Source: Nitrosopumilus sp. (GTDB lineage Archaea > Thermoproteota > Nitrososphaeria > Nitrososphaerales > Nitrosopumilaceae). Taken from it: DNA of 64,000 nucleotides. Location of the stretch: contig OY759726.1 of NCBI GenBank assembly GCA_963662625.1, forward strand, positions 1,440,001 through 1,504,000, given 5' to 3'. Positions 1-43,154 of this stretch are shown one piece after another. Numbering within the stretch: position 1 is the first letter of the stretch; every line of letters begins with the position of its first letter. The notes beneath the pieces were generated by a model. The model made no database searches, was not told where the DNA came from, and saw only the letters and a list, made by a program, of their open reading frames with translations. A program made the position numbers and the translations under genes.

Positions 1-872
<872 letters not shown>

Positions 873-4042: not shown

Positions 4043-4156
4043 CAATCATTTTTGATCACCCCTAGCGGATGCTGTGGGCGGCCGGCGCCGCCCGCCGTCT
4101 TTCGCCGGCGCCATGCGCCCGGGACCTGGGGATCCGCGGGCCCGCAGACGCCCCCG

Positions 4157-4358
4157 GGCGCCAGCAAGAAGGGTCACTGCCCGGCGCCAGCAAGAAGGGT
4201 CACTGCCCGGCGCCAGCAAGAAGGGTCACTGCCCGGCGCCAGCAAGAAGGGTCACTGCCCGGCGCCAGCAAGAAGGGTCACTGCCCGGCGCCAGCAAGAA
4301 GGGTCACTGCCCGGCGCCAGCAAGAAGGGTCACTGCCCGGCGCCAGCAAGAAGGGTCA
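4157..4358. repeat. Perfect tandem repeat, 26-bp unit ggcgccagcaagaagggtcactgccc, ~7.8 copies
   Basis: Units start at 4157, 4183, 4209, 4235, 4261, 4287, 4313 and 4339 (partial); no spacers. Confidence 0.97.
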
Positions 4359-4507
4359 TTCCTCGATGTCCGTCTGGAGTTCCTCGGGAAGCGTGGCCCA
4401 CCATTTTTCGTCAGACATCAACAGTGTTCTCCCAGACTGGCTAATAGATCTGCCGGTCAACTATTCATTCCCTTTGCGCAAGAAAACATGACAAGATCCG
4501 CGGCGCC

Positions 4508-5166: not shown

Positions 5167-5298
5167 ATGAAAGCACGGTTTTTAACGGTATGCACCTCCT
5201 GCGGCGGGAAGATCCAGCCGGGAAAGGAGATCTCCAAGAACGGGGACGAACTGTGGGTCCACAAGCATTGCGCCGAGGACGCAGAGGGACTCCCATAG
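5167..5298 (+). CDS. Small Cys/His zinc-finger-like protein (43 aa; not in ORF track)
   Basis: MKARFLTVCTSCGGKIQPGKEISKNGDELWVHKHCAEDAEGLP with CxxC...HxxC; TATA-like tttaa upstream. Confidence 0.75.
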   Translation: MKARFLTVCTSCGGKIQPGKEISKNGDELWVHKHCAEDAEGLP

Positions 5299-5398
5299 GC
5301 AGGAACGCGCCGCCTGGCAGGCGCCTGGCGTGCCCCCAGAGGGATCCGGGCGACTTGTCCGGCTCCAATGGGCCGGAACGCGCCTCCCGGCAGGCGCC
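5288..5398. repeat. Degenerate 38-bp direct repeat (32/38 identical) enclosing 35 bp
   Basis: 5288-5325 versus 5361-5398, period 73. Confidence 0.7.
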
Positions 5399-29195: not shown

Positions 29196-30140
29196 TTGAG
29201 CGACCCCGATAAATCTAAAGACGCCGAAGACATCCTGTCCGAATTTAAATCAAAAAAATCCGAGCCCTCCCGGGAATCCGCCGAGGATCCCCCCGAGCCC
29301 GCGCCGTACGGTTCGCCTTCAGACCAGTCACCCGAGCCCGCACCGTACGGATCACCCTCAGACGATCCCCCCGAGCCCGCGCCGTACGGATCAACCTCAG
29401 ACCAGCCGCAAGAACCCGAGGGCGCCGCGCCCGACGATGCCGACGCGCGGCCCGAACCCCCGGCAGACGATCCCCCCGAGCCCGCGCCGTACGGATCGAC
29501 CTCAGACCAGCCGCAAGAACCCGAGGGCGCCGCGCCCGACGATGCCGACGCGCGGCCCGAACCCCCGGCAGACGATCCCCCCGAGCCCGCGCCGTACGGA
29601 TCGACCTCAGACCAGCCGCAAGAACCCGAGGGCGCCGCGCCCGACGATGCCGACGCGCGGCCCGAACCCCCGGCAGACGATCCCCCCGAGCCCGCGCCGT
29701 ACGGATCGACCTCAGACCAGCCGCAAGAACCCGAGGGCGCCGCGCCCGACAATGCCGAACCGCCAGCCGGGGAGGAGCACGAGCCGGTACCGGAAACCGC
29801 CGAGCCAGCGCCGGAGTCGCCCGGCGCGCCCGCGGAAGACGAGGCAAAACCCGCCGAGGATCGCGACGTCGTGTTCGTCGGGATCAAGCCGCTCATGACG
29901 TACGTCACCGCCACCCTGACGCAGCTCTCGACAAGGGAAACCGTCACCATCAAGGCCAGGGGCAGGAAGATAACCCAGGCAGTCGACATATCCCAGATGA
30001 TCGTAAAACGCATGAACACCGTGGGCTATTCCGTCGGCGACATCAGGATCTCGTCCGTGTCCCTCACCTCCAAGGACGGCAAGCAGCGCAACGTCTCCAC
30101 CATAGAGATCGACATAATCAACAGCGGCAACCTCGCGTGA
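29196..30140 (+). CDS. albA: Alba chromatin protein with long acidic Pro-rich repeat N-terminus
   Basis: C-terminal VFVGIKPLMTYV...IKARGRKITQAVD...RNVSTIEI. Confidence 0.9.
   Translation: MSDPDKSKDAEDILSEFKSKKSEPSRESAEDPPEPAPYGSPSDQSPEPAPYGSPSDDPPEPAPYGSTSDQPQEPEGAAPDDADARPEPPADDPPEPAPYGSTSDQPQEPEGAAPDDADARPEPPADDPPEPAPYGSTSDQPQEPEGAAPDDADARPEPPADDPPEPAPYGSTSDQPQEPEGAAPDNAEPPAGEEHEPVPETAEPAPESPGAPAEDEAKPAEDRDVVFVGIKPLMTYVTATLTQLSTRETVTIKARGRKITQAVDISQMIVKRMNTVGYSVGDIRISSVSLTSKDGKQRNVSTIEIDIINSGNLA
29283..29757 (+). repeat. Coding tandem repeat: 105-bp unit x ~3.8, preceded by two 39-bp sub-units
   Basis: gacgatcccccc starts at 29361, 29466, 29571 and 29676; PEPAPYGS occurs six times. Confidence 0.95.
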
Positions 30141-37900: not shown

Positions 37901-38471
37901 CCCGGAGGTCTCCGACGGGTACGCGCGGTGGTCGCCGCGGAAGAACTCGCTCGAGGAGGAGCGCGACAAGATAGTCAGGTTCATCGAGGGCGTGGACAGG
38001 GAGAAGCGGCAGACGTTCCTGGACGCCTTCGACACGGTCGACAGGGAGGTGCGCCTCGTGTTCGGCAAGATGACCGGCGGCAACGCCTGGATGGAGCTGC
38101 AGAACGAGGACGACATATTCGGCTCGGGGATATCGTACCTGATCCAGTTCCCCAACAAGCCCAAGAGGGAGTCGACCTCGATCAGCGGCGGGGAGAAGAC
38201 GCTGGCGGCCATCGTGTTCGTGCTGGCGCTGCAGAGGCTCAAGCCGTCCCCGTTCTACCTCTTCGACGAGATCGACGCGCACCTGGACGCCCCGAACTCC
38301 GAGCGGCTGGCCAGGATACTCGAGGAGCGATCCCGGGAGAGCCAGTTCATCATGGTGTCGCTCAAGGACTCCGTGGTGAAGAAGGCCGGGCTCATATACG
38401 GGGTGTACCCCAAGAACGGCGTCTCCAACGTCATCGCGTACAAGGACAGGAGGGCCGCCGGCAGGGCGTAG
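34953..38471 (+). CDS. smc: Chromosome segregation protein SMC
   Basis: GFKSF, GPNGSGKSN, coiled coils with hinge, ISGGEK and FDEIDAHLD. Confidence 0.97.
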   Translation: MVHIKKAEIFGFKSFGFRNTAVQFRPGLVSISGPNGSGKSNILDAIIFAMGENKPKVMRVDRLRSLIHDIEGGRRGPKIARSSVQFDNADRKIPVDSDTVEVTRELDSKGENTYYLNRKKTTRGHVLDLLDMANAGLGQLNAVQQGTVTRISEMTPDEKRSTIETMIGLSYFDEKKSEALEQLDRADRQLQIVLVKMGDMKARIDELEEERNQQLRHDLLGRELARYRAIDTVNRLRALAAEKSGKEAALREAAAGIGRLGGERDSVRAEMEGLDSEKSRIMAEANDYNRAKAEIEMELSGAKDRYESASSEVKASRRRVGQIDARLSEVRSELGEASSRRDGAASRAAEAEGLLEAAAGRKAEAGRGQARADAARQAALDRQSRAAARKAEVDGEVAGLTSQMNEARLALEQARRERRDAGERMASNASRLEGQERAVASLAVYRDRLDAMAANHAASISELKGRIGRLEAKRAKVAGDVEELGALLEKSSRAANQYESRIKTVKGFMHEDYTVARLREDAGRLGILGLAYEMISWDRRHERPVLAASSDWLKAVVVRDFEALLGVAEFARSRKLPKLKIIPLEAMPELAPEAPSGPGVIGALSDYVRCDPAHRALRAFLFGGVVLADSRGSARALSRAGHRAVTPDGEFFEARAGTVVIDINSKISKLTRLISMSTDIDGLFHSIGLIRRYMARKKAHAARLERSIRSASGRLSLSERNLASVAENRSHLESRIASAGRAGGQMRARVGELSARSSELAAEISRRGSQVESIAGRIRAAEEGYAGGEQEGVARELERANSAKLEADRAHTAALREHGEASSRLASLRAEARREGSLARGLAAEESSLSAERAELEGRIRSGEEAMRLGEEEGARLRGREQELIASSGHSMDDIRGYDSRLRELSSRERGLTKELGSLERESDSLGRDLRDMSAQEEGLRKVISASGIGRDAETFDVGPVVEGLSAELGSLPVLNARAPELYPEVSDGYARWSPRKNSLEEERDKIVRFIEGVDREKRQTFLDAFDTVDREVRLVFGKMTGGNAWMELQNEDDIFGSGISYLIQFPNKPKRESTSISGGEKTLAAIVFVLALQRLKPSPFYLFDEIDAHLDAPNSERLARILEERSRESQFIMVSLKDSVVKKAGLIYGVYPKNGVSNVIAYKDRRAAGRA

Positions 38472-38674
38472 GGGGGCCGAAAACCCCGCCCCGCTAGCGG
38501 TGGCGCTGGAACCCGCGGGCGCCCGGCCTGGCCGAGCGCCCCCCAAAGCGTTCCGGAGCCGCGCCCCAGGATCCTCCCGCGTTTTGCCGCGCATGTGCGT
38601 GTCCCGCCAGCACCTGCCCTTTCCACACTGCGGCCCCTGCCGCACCGGTACCTGGCGGGGGCTGGGGGATCCGC

Positions 38675-38786
38675 GTTAGGCACAGCCGATCACCTCGTAG
38701 GATGTGCCGGCCCCTCGGCCCACCGCCGGGCCTCCTCCCGCTGCTCCGGTTAGGCACAGCCGATCACCTCGTAGGATGTGCCGGCC
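38675..38786. repeat. Perfect 38-bp direct repeat enclosing 36 bp
   Basis: gttaggcacagccgatcacctcgtaggatgtgccggcc at 38675-38712 and 38749-38786. Confidence 0.95.
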
Positions 38787-39015
38787 GCACGAAAACCAGT
38801 TCCCGTGCCCTGAGCCACACGTACGCATCTCACGTGCGCGCGCCGGCAATCCGTTACGGGCAGTCCGCATATGACGCGCCGTAGGCATGAAGCGCGGATC
38901 GGCAACACCACACGCTCGCAACAAATCCAAGAAATGCGGCAGTGACGTGACTCAGTATCCGTGACTAAAATCGGATCAGGCGCGGCGCGCCAGACTTACT
39001 GTGTTACTGCATGGG

Positions 39016-39126
39016 GCGGATGCGGGCACCGATGCAGGCCATGCTTGGCAACCTGATTATCTCCGGGAAGGTCGCGCCGACTATGATCGCGGATGCGGGC
39101 ACCGATGCAGGCCATGCTTGGCAACC
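39016..39126. repeat. Perfect 38-bp direct repeat enclosing 35 bp
   Basis: gcggatgcgggcaccgatgcaggccatgcttggcaacc at 39016-39053 and 39089-39126. Confidence 0.95.
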
Positions 39127-39178
39127 GGGCGGACAAGGCAGCCAAGACGGTCCAATGTTCAACGCCGTTACTGCGTCC

Positions 39179-39254
39179 CACGCCAACCTGGACGTCATGG
39201 GGCACACCGGCAGGAAGCCCTTGGCGCCCAGGAACTTTTGAGCGTTGCTATACT
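39179..39254 (+). mobile_element. Probable IS 3'-end remnant (homologous copy at 58664-58739)
   Basis: 62/76 identity to the reverse complement of 58664-58739; IS nature and family inferred. Confidence 0.6.
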
Positions 39255-39388
39255 GAGTCTGGCTGCCCTTGCTTTTCTTGATCGGTAAAGCGCAAGGCAA
39301 TCCTTTGCAAGCCTCCTCAAGCTCGTGTGACCTAATTTATGTACGGGCCCACAGCACAATTCATAAATATAAAACGGGGATACGGAAA

Positions 39389-39607
39389 ATGGAGGCCATG
39401 GATACAAGAAAGTTCACCCTGCAGGTAATCAAGTCGCCAGAGGGTGGATTCACCGGACGTTGCCTGGAACTGCCTGCGGCCATCAGTGAAGGGGACACGC
39501 TGGAGGAATTGGAGTCCAATATGAAAGAGGTCATCCAACTGGTTCTGGAATCGATTGAGGAGCAAGTGAAACCAGATCAAAAGAAGGTCATAGAGATTCC
39601 AAATTGA
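39389..39607 (+). CDS. hicB: HicB family antitoxin (short form)
   Basis: EGGFTGRCLELPAAISEGDTLEELESNMKEVI. Confidence 0.9.
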   Translation: MEAMDTRKFTLQVIKSPEGGFTGRCLELPAAISEGDTLEELESNMKEVIQLVLESIEEQVKPDQKKVIEIPN

Positions 39608-39819
39608 GCCTCAGGAACCACAATTGGCTTGATGTGGTCAAGGCAATGAGCAAGCTTGGGTATGCTGTCATCAGGCAACGGGGAAGCCACATGATTTTGG
39701 CAAGCAATAGCGGCAACATAGTTCCTGTCCCGAGGCATTCTCCAATACGGGAATCAACTCTGAGACTGATTTTGGAGCAGGCCAAAATCGCCAAAAGCGA
39801 CTCTCTAAAGAACGTCTGA
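39604..39819 (+). CDS. hicA: HicA family mRNA interferase toxin
   Basis: LGYAVIRQRGSHMIL...VPVPRH...TLRLILEQA; overlaps hicB. Confidence 0.92.
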   Translation: MSLRNHNWLDVVKAMSKLGYAVIRQRGSHMILASNSGNIVPVPRHSPIRESTLRLILEQAKIAKSDSLKNV

Positions 39820-39857
39820 TTCTGGATCAAGCTGGCTCTGTGGGAGCATACGGGACG

Positions 39858-40192
39858 TAGTGTTCACATTAGATAATCGCCCGTCTTGGCGGCCTGATCT
39901 CCCCCGTGCATGGCATCGTCCCTGCTGGTTCCTTCATCTCGCCGGCCGGCCCGCACGGCCCGTTGGCGGCGCGCAGCCCCGTGTTGCGCCACTGTCCCCC
40001 TGCCGGGCCGGGGTCTGGCGCGTGGGCGGGAAAGTGCCCGGGCACGGCGTCCCCGCCGTGGCCCCTGGCGGCTCCCGTCACCTTGCGCGGCTTGCGGCAG
40101 CCCGCGTTGTCCGCAGGGACGGGCGCCTTCCCGGACTCCCTGCGGAGCCTGCCGGGAAAGTCCGCGAGGCTGCCCCCGTTCGCCCTCTCGCA
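39858..40192 (-). pseudogene. IS630-family transposase C-terminal remnant
   Basis: KALVLADNAGCRK...FPAHAPDPGPAGGQW, a decayed DNA-x-x-H / P-x-Y-x-P-E-L-N-P-x-E-x-x-W. Confidence 0.75.
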
Positions 40193-41326
40193 TAGTCAAC
40201 GCCTTATTAAACCGTTCAAACCATTGTGACAGCATTGCCTGGCCGAAAGATCCAGGCCGTGCGCGTGCCGACTGTCACCATGGAAAGAAAAAACATGCTG
40301 AAAAAGGGGCCGGCGTTCCTTCCCGGCACCGGCATGCCGTACCTGAAGGCATGCCACGGGAAGGAGGAATGCCCCAAGGCCCGCGAGAGGCTGCTGGCGT
40401 GCATGGCGGGGAAGGAGGGGCCCGCGGCGCGCCAGGCAGCGCCGGGGCCGGACCGCAGGCCCGCCGCCATGGGGGACTGGCCCGCGGGGGCCGGCCGGGG
40501 CGGCCCGCGGGAGGGGCGCGACGGCCGCAAGGAGGGGAGGCCGCGCAGGCCCGGCGGGCCCCAGGCCAGGGGGCCGGCAGCCGGCATGGAAAGGGGCCCC
40601 GGGGAATTAGGCTCCGGGCCCCCGCTGCGGGCCCCCAGGACGGTGCTGGCCCGCGCCGGGAGGGGTTCGGCGCGGGGTACGGGACAGGCGGCGCGCAGAA
40701 GCTCCCGGCCAGGATCGGCATGTCGCGGGAGAAGGCGGGGCCAAGCCGCCCCAAACCGGCCCCGAAAGGGGCGCAAGGCGGGTCCAAAAAAAGGCGGCGC
40801 GGCTGGCCCGCGGGTACGGCAGGCCAGGGCACGCCGCCCCCGCGGGGGACGGGGCCGCCGCCGCACCGGGCGGCAACAGGGCGCGCTGCGGCCGGCACGG
40901 GAGGGGGAAGGGGAAGGCCGCCCCCGTCACGCCCTCAGGGGACAGGAAGCGCGCGTTCGGCGTCCCCGGGGACGGGGAATCCTGCCGCATGTCCCGCGGC
41001 CAGAAGGATCCCGGCGTGTCCATGAGGTTCCCGGGCAGGGTCCGCGGGAGGTCCGGCAAGGTGCCCGTGTCCGCAGGCAACGCGCCGCGGCGCAAGCCCG
41101 GGGCGGTGCTGCGCCACGCGGGGGGCGCGGGGGCGTCCGGCCGGGGCACTTTCCCCCGCACGCCCCGGAGCCTGGCGGCACCAGGGTGCGGCGGGGGGTG
41201 ACGGGGAACCCCGTGGGCAACAGCCCGTGCGCTGACACCGGGGAGGCCGTGGGGCCCATGCGCGCCATGATCCGCAAGAGGGAGATCGTTCCGGTCAAAA
41301 TGAACGATTACTTAAGGCGTTGACTA
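40193..41326 (+). mobile_element. Degenerate IS630-family element
   Basis: Inverted ends tagtcaacgcctta (40193-40206) / taaggcgttgacta (41313-41326) including flanking TA; decayed motifs ARERLLAC, AGNAPRRK and FPPHAPE. Confidence 0.85.
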
Positions 41327-41750
41327 CGTACCTGGGTATCAGGTGGTAGTCCAGGGCCACGACGCAGCGGATCCGCCTGAGGATCCCCGGCCGCCTGGCA
41401 TCCCGCACGGTGGCGGCGAGGGCGCCGGAGCACCGCTCCCGCATGGCGTCCTGGCCGCCGCGCACCCCCCGTATCCTGGAGAGCACCCACGCCGACGACG
41501 GTACGCGGCGGGGCCCGTGGCGCACGGCGAGCGCCCCGGCGGCGCCCGACGCGCACGAGCGGTCCCTGCACATGGACACCAGCACGCGCACGGAGCCGGC
41601 CGTGCCGCACGCGGCGTTGTGCCGTCCCGAGAACCCGATGCCCGCCTTCCCAAGCAGCCGTGGCAACGTTTTAAACGCCTTGCCCACCACCTCAAGCCGG
41701 TGCCCCCGTGGTTCGTTTTGGTGGTACACGATGGATGACAGGGGCGCCTG
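41327..41750 (-). pseudogene. ISH3/IS4-like transposase N-terminal fragment
   Basis: VPSSAWVL...VVALDYHLIPRY, cut by the IS630 end. Confidence 0.65.
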
Positions 41751-41837
41751 ATCAATTGGCTTTTCTGTCCAAAACGTTCCAGTATCGGGCCAGGACATGC
41801 TGGCCGGCGTCCTGCTGGGGCACATTTCGATCTACTG

Positions 41838-41872
41838 GGCCAGGGGATCGTGCCTAGTTGTGCAACAAGCTA
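41838..41872. mobile_element. Solo IS5-family end, inverted relative to 14627
   Basis: Reverse complement is 33/35 identical to 14627-14661. Confidence 0.8.
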
Positions 41873-41979
41873 GCCCAACCGATACCGCTTTATTCCCTCG
41901 CGGCAGCATGTTTCTCGCGTTCCAAGTGCCTTGAGTCAACGGCTAGCCCAACCGATACCGCTTTATTCCCTCGCGGCAG
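41869..41979. repeat. Perfect 38-bp direct repeat enclosing 35 bp
   Basis: gctagcccaaccgataccgctttattccctcgcggcag at 41869-41906 and 41942-41979. Confidence 0.95.
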
Positions 41980-41990
41980 AGCATCCGCGT

Positions 41991-43154
41991 ATGGCGCCCT
42001 GTCTTGCCTACAAGCCCTGGCAGTCGGTCGACCCGGCCAGGCGCTACTGCCTGGTCGACACGATGGTGCTGCTCCAGCTGTACCGCCGCGACCGGACGCT
42101 GGCTGCCATGGCCGAGGCCGTCCTCGACGGCCGGGCGCTGCTGGTGGTCCCCAGCGTGGTCGGCGAGTGCTACAACGTGTTCAACGCCAACAAGCCGGGC
42201 GCGGGGGGGCCCGGGCCGCCCGGCGGGAAGGGCGGCCCCCGCGAGCTCGCCGCCGTGCGGGCCACGCGCGAGGACCTGGAGGTGGAGCCTGGATCGCGCG
42301 ACGGGTTCGACTGCCTCCTGGTGGACTGCCTGAGCGCGTGGGGGGCGGCGTTCGCGGCCGTCGAGCCGGGCGCGGGCACGCTGGCAGCCGCCAGGCGGAT
42401 GAAGAAGAGCGCGAGGTACGGGCCCCTCTCGCCCACGGACTGCCTCCTGCTGAGGCTGGCCGTCGAGAACCCCAACGTGGACGTCCTCACGGACGACAAG
42501 GACCTGGCCAGGGCCATCGCCTCCGAGTGCGGCCGGGGCAGGGCGTCCAACGTGTTCAACGACTACTTTGGCAGGCTGAACATGACGGCCCGCTTCCTCA
42601 GCATGGTCTCCGGGCTGGGCTTCGTGGACTGCAGGCCCGCCCGGGACAGGATAGAGTACTATGCCGACGACATGAGCGAGGACGAGACCGGCGCCCTGCG
42701 CCGCGACAGGCCCGGGCCCCACTCCCCGCCGGACAGGCGCCCGCCCCTGCTCCTCGCGGTGCGGTGCCTGCCGGGGCGCACGCGGGCCGAGGACGACGCG
42801 GTGCTCCGCCGCCTGAAGCCCGGCTCCGCGCCGGGCATAACGCGCGCGCTGCTGGACTTTGTCGACATGGTGGTGCTGGACTGGTACTGCGCGTGCGGCG
42901 ACCCGAACCTGGTCGCCTTTGACGGCAAGTGGGCCAGGGCCCCGCGCGGCACTGGCGCCGACGCGAGGCCGGCCCCGGACGCGCGCCGGGCCGGGCGGAG
43001 GCGGGCCCGGGCCGGGCGGGGGGGCCGCAGGCCGTACTATGACGCCGCCAGGGGCCTGCTGAGGGAGAAGCGCAACAGCCACTGCGCGTGCGCCAGGCCC
43101 GACGAGCGCCGCCTGCACGAGGCGTTCCGGGACATAGTGTCGGAGCCCCGGTGA
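41991..43154 (+). CDS. PIN-domain protein with long C-terminal extension
   Basis: LVDTMVL, VVGEC, LSPTDCLLL and VLTDDKDL; C-terminal CACG and HCAC. Confidence 0.75.
   Translation: MAPCLAYKPWQSVDPARRYCLVDTMVLLQLYRRDRTLAAMAEAVLDGRALLVVPSVVGECYNVFNANKPGAGGPGPPGGKGGPRELAAVRATREDLEVEPGSRDGFDCLLVDCLSAWGAAFAAVEPGAGTLAAARRMKKSARYGPLSPTDCLLLRLAVENPNVDVLTDDKDLARAIASECGRGRASNVFNDYFGRLNMTARFLSMVSGLGFVDCRPARDRIEYYADDMSEDETGALRRDRPGPHSPPDRRPPLLLAVRCLPGRTRAEDDAVLRRLKPGSAPGITRALLDFVDMVVLDWYCACGDPNLVAFDGKWARAPRGTGADARPAPDARRAGRRRARAGRGGRRPYYDAARGLLREKRNSHCACARPDERRLHEAFRDIVSEPR

Follow-up and report, generated by a model that had tools for sequence, protein, structure and literature searches.

In the window, a 64,000-nucleotide stretch of the Nitrosopumilus sp. 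contig OY759726.1 (genome positions 1440001-1504000), three short units each consist of two perfect copies of a host sequence separated by a spacer-sized insert. These units, and others of the same geometry scattered over the genome, are very probably off-target (ectopic) integrations made by the resident type I-G Cas4/Cas1-Cas2 of a CRISPR system, with one event for each unit. An earlier note had proposed that a fixed-ruler, Cas1-type integrase pasted short fragments into this chromosome, and this proposal is now supported by a spike in repeat period, a matching cas module, traceable donors and empty paralogous alleles. The genome is a single contig of 1,858,698 bp with 63.4% G+C.

Repeat-insert-repeat units in the window

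The three perfect 38-nt direct-repeat pairs described earlier, with inserts of 36, 35 and 35 nt and periods of 74, 73 and 73, were confirmed by direct sequence reading, repeat search and shifted self-alignment (Table 1). Immediately beyond both edges of every repeat copy, identity in the shifted self-alignment is at chance level. The repeat sequence of unit 1 occurs twice in the genome and no more; 38 nt are identical between its copies, and the true duplication is probably about 36 nt. No donor of at least 22 nt was found by BLAST elsewhere in the genome for the unit 1 insert. The insert of unit 2, by comparison, is identical over 28 of 28 nt to genome 502707-502680 (minus strand), the remaining 7 nt aligning with 2 mismatches, and its target is single-copy and insert-free in three paralogues (genome 690276-690120, 1061823-1061979 and 1632971-1632821). 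For unit 3, no donor was found in the genome, and the 25-nt core of the insert had no exact match in viral_contigs or metagenome_contigs, an exact-match search of virome and metagenome contigs being insensitive. The degenerate pair to which the earlier note had assigned the same 38 + 35 geometry was also recovered, as a diverged, older unit.

Units 1 to 3 lie downstream of the smc gene, which ends at 38471; the following 3.4 kb have no Pfam match except for a PIN-domain open reading frame (ORF) after unit 3. To the left of unit 3 (window 41719-41845) is a sequence of ~125 bp that recurs at more than 20 further genome sites with 80-90% identity. This multi-copy element stops 18-27 bp short of the repeat, and unit 3 therefore stands outside that family.

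Table 1 Coordinates of the repeat-insert-repeat units and of the probable replication origin (window positions unless marked as genome).
Feature	Position	Strand	Basis or remark
Unit 1, target copy 1	38675-38712	.	Perfect match to 38749-38786; flanks at chance level
Unit 1, insert (36 nt, spacer-sized)	38713-38748	.	Length inside the array spacer range of 34-40 nt
Unit 1, target copy 2	38749-38786	.	Self-alignment and contig breaks
Unit 2, target copy 1	39016-39053	.	Within a multi-copy element
Unit 2, insert (35 nt), copied from another chromosomal site	39054-39088	.	Donor match
Unit 2, target copy 2	39089-39126	.	Self-alignment and paralogue alignment
Unit 3, target copy 1	41869-41906	.	Repeat search and self-alignment
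Unit 3, insert (35 nt)	41907-41941	.	No genomic donor
Unit 3, target copy 2	41942-41979	.	Directly upstream of the PIN-domain ORF
Diverged older unit	5288-5398 (copies 5288-5325 and 5361-5398)	.	Period 73; 31 of the 36 best positions identical
Probable replication origin	genome 838249-839460 (L062:8250-9461)		orc1/cdc6, PolD genes, repeats, AT-rich tract

Repeated units of this kind could be artefacts of assembly or sequencing, and they were therefore compared with Logan contigs (k=31 unitigs) from three public short-read runs, X1, X2 and X3. Contigs of X1 and X2 stop at 38704, one X1 contig starts at 38757, contigs of X1 and X2 start at 41950, a contig covers 38757-39045, and a further breakpoint falls at 39097. 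The breaks fall 30 nt into copy 1 and 30 nt before the end of copy 2, which is how k=31 unitigs behave at a true 38-nt repeat; the three runs may include the source sample, and the breaks are therefore not independent proof. Little or no coverage over unit 1 was seen in X2 and X3, which does not indicate absence of the unit. Nothing positive speaks for an artefact, beyond the genome being a single assembled contig. Besides the exact position of the breaks in these other runs, inserts that copy distant loci faithfully, the same architecture in independently assembled genomes and the age indicated by about eight diverged copies all stand against it, and its probability is close to nil.

Genome-wide geometry and the resident type I-G locus

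If a single reaction produced the units, its geometry is expected to recur across the genome. An exact-repeat scan (seed 16, repeat of at least 20 nt, sequence occurring only twice in the genome) returned 186 pairs, 31 of them at periods 70-74 and 24 at period 75, the latter corresponding to a 25-residue protein repeat. When mismatches were tolerated, 38 isolated pairs were found at periods 40-130, with 26 of the 38 at 69-74. A looser threshold (at least 27 of 36 positions identical) added roughly eight more diverged pairs at periods 69-74, including 5288/5361, while the non-multiple-of-three periods 61-68 and 76-83 hold 0-1 pairs apiece. The genome-wide length spike that the earlier note had proposed to look for is thus present at periods 69-74, and the excess is far beyond chance.

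The final set comprises 30 loci with 31 inserts (named here by genome position), the tandem form at 1083394 having been dropped and units from mixed clusters added. The two copies are identical in 19 of the 30 loci and carry 1-3 differences in the other 11; identical copy lengths range from 29 to 42 nt and insert lengths from 31 to 43 nt. The units sit in DNA without codon-phase GC periodicity (median 0.115 vs 0.366 for the genome; Mann-Whitney p=1.5e-13), in agreement with their earlier placement in intergenic or junk DNA.

The Cas1 model has one match in the whole genome, at 1694351-1695190. The cas locus begins 173 kb past the window end, in agreement with the earlier observation that the window holds no cas gene. 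The Cas1 ORF is a Cas4/Cas1 fusion (NF049935 cas4g_cas1g, 727.6 bits; cut-off 560) that adjoins Cas2 (31.6 bits); both ORFs are intact and lie next to the array. On the other side of the array are Cas7g, Csb2, Cas3g and Cas8g/Csx17, which identify the system as type I-G. In the single array (1683977-1693742), a 36-nt repeat occurs 135 times and separates 134 spacers with lengths of 34-40 nt, most commonly 37 nt (44 spacers), 36 nt (41) or 35 nt (22). The search for cas1, cas2 and cas4 suggested earlier thus yields a cas4/cas1-cas2 module beside an array of the same geometry as the units: mean periods calculated by hand are 72.1 for the scattered units and 72.6 for the array, with ranges of 69-74 and 70-76, respectively.

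Donors, target sites and empty alleles

Spacers captured from the host's own chromosome are expected to leave a recognizable donor. BLAST of the 31 inserts against the genome identified a near-full-length donor elsewhere for 12 of them, with 89-100% identity and at distances of up to ~1 Mb from the unit. Most donor alignments end at or a few bases from the insert edges, and 30 of the 31 inserts are absent or single-copy elsewhere in the genome. Directly 5' of the donor on one strand, TTN was found for 5 of the 12 donors, compared with 7% for random 35-mers (binomial p=9e-4). The check on insert source and protospacer-adjacent motif (PAM) that the earlier note had asked for therefore has a positive outcome on both counts, and the TTN enrichment of donors is suggestive of a PAM. 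In the array, only two spacers have matches, both perfect and both to the own genome (spacers 1692138-1692174 and 1693522-1693559, with targets 838035-837999 and 1799725-1799688). These two targets lack TTN in the CRISPR RNA (crRNA) orientation, the flanks being TGA and GGC. Two spacers without TTN would fit, weakly, with selection against usable self-spacers in the array and not in the scattered units.

The length of the duplicated segment was bracketed by hand in nine units from the largest possible donor match. In seven of the nine donor-defined units the bracketed range includes 36 bp, so the 38-bp repeats are most likely ~36-bp duplications extended by 1-2 bases through chance identity or true variation. 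The 38-bp length suggested earlier is refined accordingly, the duplicated target being about 36 bp and not strictly 38.

These donors and lengths also bear on replication slippage, tandem duplication and templated patch insertion during double-strand-break repair, which together we judge to be very unlikely sources of the units. A few loci of the same period are truly tandem: at 1842204 (genome 1842204-1842386), three identical repeats alternate with two inserts that are themselves identical, and at 1083394 (period 73) the match extends over 78 nt. Such tandem forms are readily explained by secondary recombination between copies of an existing unit, which is probably how locus 1842204 arose. 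Slippage is expected to give an AB-AB arrangement, whereas A-B-A is found, with B copied from up to ~1 Mb away, and tandem slippage was rejected on this architecture and distant source. The duplication and insert lengths are sharply peaked and not flat, and repair leaves the TTN enrichment unexplained. We know of no repair route that yields a constant 36-bp duplication together with a 34-38-bp insert.

Donors are unevenly placed. Of the 13 single-copy donors, 11 of them ectopic and 2 belonging to array spacers, seven fall in the 838-926 kb interval, and four are within 6 kb of orc1/cdc6, a gene with no second copy in the genome. Genes for both PolD subunits flank it, and the DNA upstream contains a pair of 27-nt direct repeats together with a long AT-rich tract; one donor starts immediately after the second 27-nt repeat. 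From this gene content, these repeats and the AT-rich tract, the site is a probable replication origin (Table 1) and a donor hot spot for self-derived spacers. GC skew marked no origin in the genome.

If the units are insertions, the target is expected to exist elsewhere as a single copy. For each locus, the left flank, one target copy and the right flank were joined and searched against the genome. Unbroken alignment to a paralogue was obtained for 395288, 396382, 457709, 692187, 1020047, 1479016 (unit 2 of the window) and 1578421. The empty-site paralogues, available for at least 7 of the 30 loci, are copies of multi-copy elements, and a multiple alignment of four loci places the extra DNA relative to the paralogues at exactly one target copy plus the insert. 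The expectation of empty alleles is therefore borne out in paralogues.

Little else distinguishes the target sites. The duplicated segment has G as its first base in 19 of 30 loci (p=3e-4), C as its last in 16 (p=0.013) and both in 11. None of 648 k-mers (4- and 5-mers) is significantly enriched in the 30 repeats after correction, the best p value being 4e-4. Two motifs had been reported earlier from the window repeats, and both are indeed there: CCGAT starts at position 11-14 in all three, and two of the three begin with G(T/C)TAG. Neither extends to the wider set, where neither CCGAT (or its complement ATCGG) nor G(T/C)TAG is among the 15 most enriched of the k-mers. Likeness to the leader-repeat junction, to the repeat or to a host-factor site is treated here as a trait of particular systems and not as defining for the class.

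Units with two repeats and one insert could also be read as working mini-CRISPR arrays, as repeat-like regulators or as internal parts of insertion sequence (IS) or miniature inverted-repeat transposable element (MITE) families. Locus 463591 (genome 463591-463770) invites the first of these readings, with three near-identical repeats and two different inserts, as does a locus with three repeats (L032) near a related cas4/cas1 gene. Locus 463591 may reflect a second acquisition or be what is left of an old array; its repeat shares the 9-mer ATGGGGCCG with the true CRISPR repeat, out of register, which may be chance. The repeat is different in every unit, in each case an ordinary host sequence that is single in paralogues, and each occurs only twice in the genome or once per paralogue. 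In RNA sense, the true repeat has the 3' end ATTGAAGC and a 7-bp hairpin (-9.7 kcal/mol, z -3.2), whereas for the three window repeats folding is no stronger than for shuffled sequences (z -1.4 to +1.0), and the ATTGAAGC handle is missing. Rfam has no match in window 38000-42500, and perfect PAM-flanked self-targets persist. A functional CRISPR array was thus rejected, there being no shared repeat family, fold signal or handle. Several units do lie inside multi-copy elements, which would favor an IS or MITE origin, but the paralogues of these elements lack the insert. IS or MITE duplication was likewise rejected, with inserts of 31-43 nt that are, in 30 of 31 cases, absent or single-copy elsewhere. 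Overall, this group of explanations has little to recommend it and is highly improbable. Instead, the ectopic units are most likely inert scars without CRISPR function: their repeats have neither hairpin nor ATTGAAGC handle, and several hold perfect self-targets with a PAM flank, the use of which would be lethal.

Mechanism, related genomes and known systems

Five of the features by which an off-target integration product would be recognized were found, namely insert length, duplication length, an adaptation module in the genome, an empty site, and a donor with PAM. Architecture, geometry, donors, empty paralogous sites and enzyme genes can be read directly from the genome, and the following course of events would account for them. 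The complex would capture a prespacer of 34-38 bp, often trimmed by the Cas4 domain beside a TTN PAM, and would attack ordinary chromosomal DNA in place of the leader-proximal repeat. Two strand transfers on opposite strands would occur ~36 bp apart, the length of the true repeat. Since repeat and targets have no sequence in common, the spacing would be set by a protein ruler, and G would be favoured as the first 5' base of the duplication, whichever strand is read. Gap filling would then double the 36-bp target and leave a target-insert-target unit with a 69-74-bp period, as the array has. The cell's own chromosome would be the source of many prespacers, notably at and to one side of the probable origin. 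Surviving units would be those in non-coding or decayed DNA, genic hits probably being selected against.

The host, an ammonia oxidizer, is archaeal by its small-subunit (SSU) ribosomal RNA (rRNA), for which the archaeal model scores 1456 bits vs 1085 for the bacterial one; an archaeal AmoA is present, and McrA was not found in the genome, which speaks against a methanogen of the Methanomassiliicoccales. Window 1-872 is part of the sole SSU rRNA gene (genome 1439402-1440872). Repetitive DNA of other kinds is also present. In the window, a 26-bp unit is repeated in tandem ~9-12 times at 4102-4413, with 97-99% identity between the central copies, and direct repeats of 39 bp and 105 bp are nested at 29278-29863. 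As 39 and 105 are each divisible by three, the nested repeats may belong to a repetitive protein-coding region. A number of further multi-copy families and numerous protein-repeat arrays with a 75-bp period (SWDVS-type motifs in translation) occur elsewhere in the genome, which by its sequence seems to abound in mobile or decayed elements.

The nearest Cas4/Cas1 proteins (53-75% identical) come from metagenome-assembled genomes (MAGs) labelled Nitrosopumilus, Nitrosopumilaceae, Cenarchaeum, Caldilineaceae and Dehalococcoidia. In 46 loci around related cas4/cas1 genes, nine isolated units with non-CRISPR repeats and periods of 71-75 were found, in five loci. In one of these, from a Caldilineaceae MAG (L053:10954-11062), a 73-bp unit, made up of a 36-nt duplication and a 37-nt insert, interrupts the cas4/cas1 gene itself; the frame is shifted with the 73 bp in place, and 1653 nt are open once they are removed. 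The integrase thus appears, from this sequence, to have struck its own gene. A same-genus genome with the full fusion gene (G002) has one unit in a 159-kb sample. No unit was found in a 400-kb sample of a genome without a Cas1 match (G003), which gives no contrast with G016, a genome considered below. These results indicate that the reaction recurs in this Cas4/Cas1 system family and that the load in the present genome is unusually high, perhaps because selection is weak here, decayed DNA being plentiful.

Recurrence in relatives also bears on whether the insertions are the work of another fixed-ruler integrase, be it a solo Cas1, a casposase or some unknown enzyme. The targets are unlike the CRISPR repeat, so that target sequence is not specific to a CRISPR integrase, and to this extent another enzyme would serve as well. 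However, the sole genomic Cas1 match is the Cas4/Cas1 fusion at the CRISPR locus, which narrows the enzyme to the resident Cas4/Cas1-Cas2 and leaves no solo Cas1 or casposase. In addition, insert length, duplication length and TTN flank all match the resident system, and further units are found next to related cas4/cas1 genes of unrelated hosts. In casposons, the target duplications are far shorter and stand at the two ends of a whole element. Another integrase is thus disfavoured, with only a slim chance of being responsible.

Several observations weigh against attributing the units to the resident complex. Catalysis by Cas4/Cas1-Cas2, the ruler and the role of selection are what we infer from the analysis. 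The targets are unlike the true repeat (best match mean 14.3 of 36 vs 14.1 for random, p=0.23), so likeness to the repeat does not account for the attraction of the integrase to them. Seven of the 12 donors lack the TTN flank, a count that rests on boundaries ambiguous by a few bases, and 19 of the 31 inserts have no identified source; in the same insensitive exact-match search, three untraced cores (25-26 nt) had no match in viral_contigs, one of them also having none in metagenome_contigs. Two duplications fall outside 36 bp, at 33-34 bp (692187) and 38-42 bp (715397), and the donor cluster at the origin was spotted post hoc. An orthologous empty allele was not seen in 40 relatives, in which the unit region is not conserved and only the smc part of the query is (71-79% in the closest), nor is an empty allele detectable in k=31 contigs, the repeat being longer than k. 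Finally, G016, with full cas4g/cas1g and an array, has no unit in a 400-kb sample, and possession of the system alone is therefore insufficient.

Off-target spacer integration has mostly been studied with overexpressed Escherichia coli proteins or in vitro, and to our knowledge its natural frequency and cost are largely unknown. Casposons, virus-borne mini-arrays or solitary repeat units, and CreTA-type degenerate repeats are other Cas1-family products or short repeat-spacer-repeat arrangements outside main arrays. Casposons are whole mobile elements, and the repeats of mini-arrays and CreTA resemble the genuine CRISPR repeat. In contrast, each repeat in the present units is a different piece of host DNA.

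The comparisons that follow are with particular parts of three published accounts. In E. coli, off-target integration by overexpressed type I-E Cas1-Cas2 reportedly generates neo-CRISPR units; the events are rare and favour DNA resembling the integration host factor (IHF) site, and according to later papers that cite the work, circumstantial evidence was also given for two other species (Nivala, Shipman and Church, Nat Microbiol 2018). The present units agree with those in that Cas1-Cas2 would have placed a spacer outside the array and duplicated a repeat-length target, leaving a one-spacer unit. They differ in being natural and fixed, with ~30 in one 1.86-Mb archaeal genome, and in their probable enzyme, a Cas4/Cas1 fusion of type I-G whose ruler would be 36 bp and for which no target motif was detected. 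In vitro, Pyrococcus furiosus Cas1-Cas2 performs full-site integration into non-CRISPR plasmid DNA with fixed spacing, and the mutant G1A-C30T points to a role for the repeat-terminal G and C (PMC6698737). This role parallels the G-first and C-last bias seen here. The off-target sites in that work share repeat features, whereas the present targets have no such likeness, and the P. furiosus events were obtained in vitro on plasmids, whereas the present ones are fixed in a genome.

For the enzyme itself, the comparison is with the one Cas4/Cas1 fusion of this subtype to have been studied, from the type I-U (now I-G) system of Geobacter sulfurreducens, which acquires mainly 36-bp spacers, with TTN in 50% of unique naive spacers (PMC6547450). 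There, TTN licenses interference, ~70% of unique spacers are plasmid-derived, and expanded arrays were examined (PMC6547450). The G. sulfurreducens fusion belongs to the same gene family (NF049935) as the one in the present genome, where spacers measure 34-38 nt and the TTN share is 5 of 12 donors. Its spacers are mostly derived from plasmid, whereas the traceable inserts here are chromosomal. In the literature searched, a paper on sponge-associated Thaumarchaeota included, dozens of natural fixed events in one genome were not found reported; the natural examples of Nivala et al. may overlap in kind. The mechanism is already known, and what would be new is its natural, genome-wide scale.

In the set are ~30 events, natural and fixed, whose junctions can be placed exactly; many also have an identified donor and empty site. 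For a subtype whose integration mechanism is little studied, they supply junction-level readings of the integrase: a ruler of ~36 bp, a preference for G at the end, a TTN PAM and self DNA drawn from the origin region. A repeat-length duplication around a spacer-length insert offers a search image for any genome, and it is also a caution for CRISPR-finding software, since two-repeat arrays with unique repeats can be scars. For the organisms themselves, the units suggest that CRISPR adaptation can add to symbiont genome decay and disable the genes of the CRISPR system itself. More tentatively, and with the balance of probability still against it, frequent ectopic integration may be a mutagenic force in an I-G lineage of apparent sponge-type symbionts, archaeal and bacterial, one that leaves dozens of fixed scars in each genome, samples the origin, can disrupt the integrase itself (L053) and occasionally seeds second-spacer loci (463591 and L032), which would amount to the natural birth of arrays.

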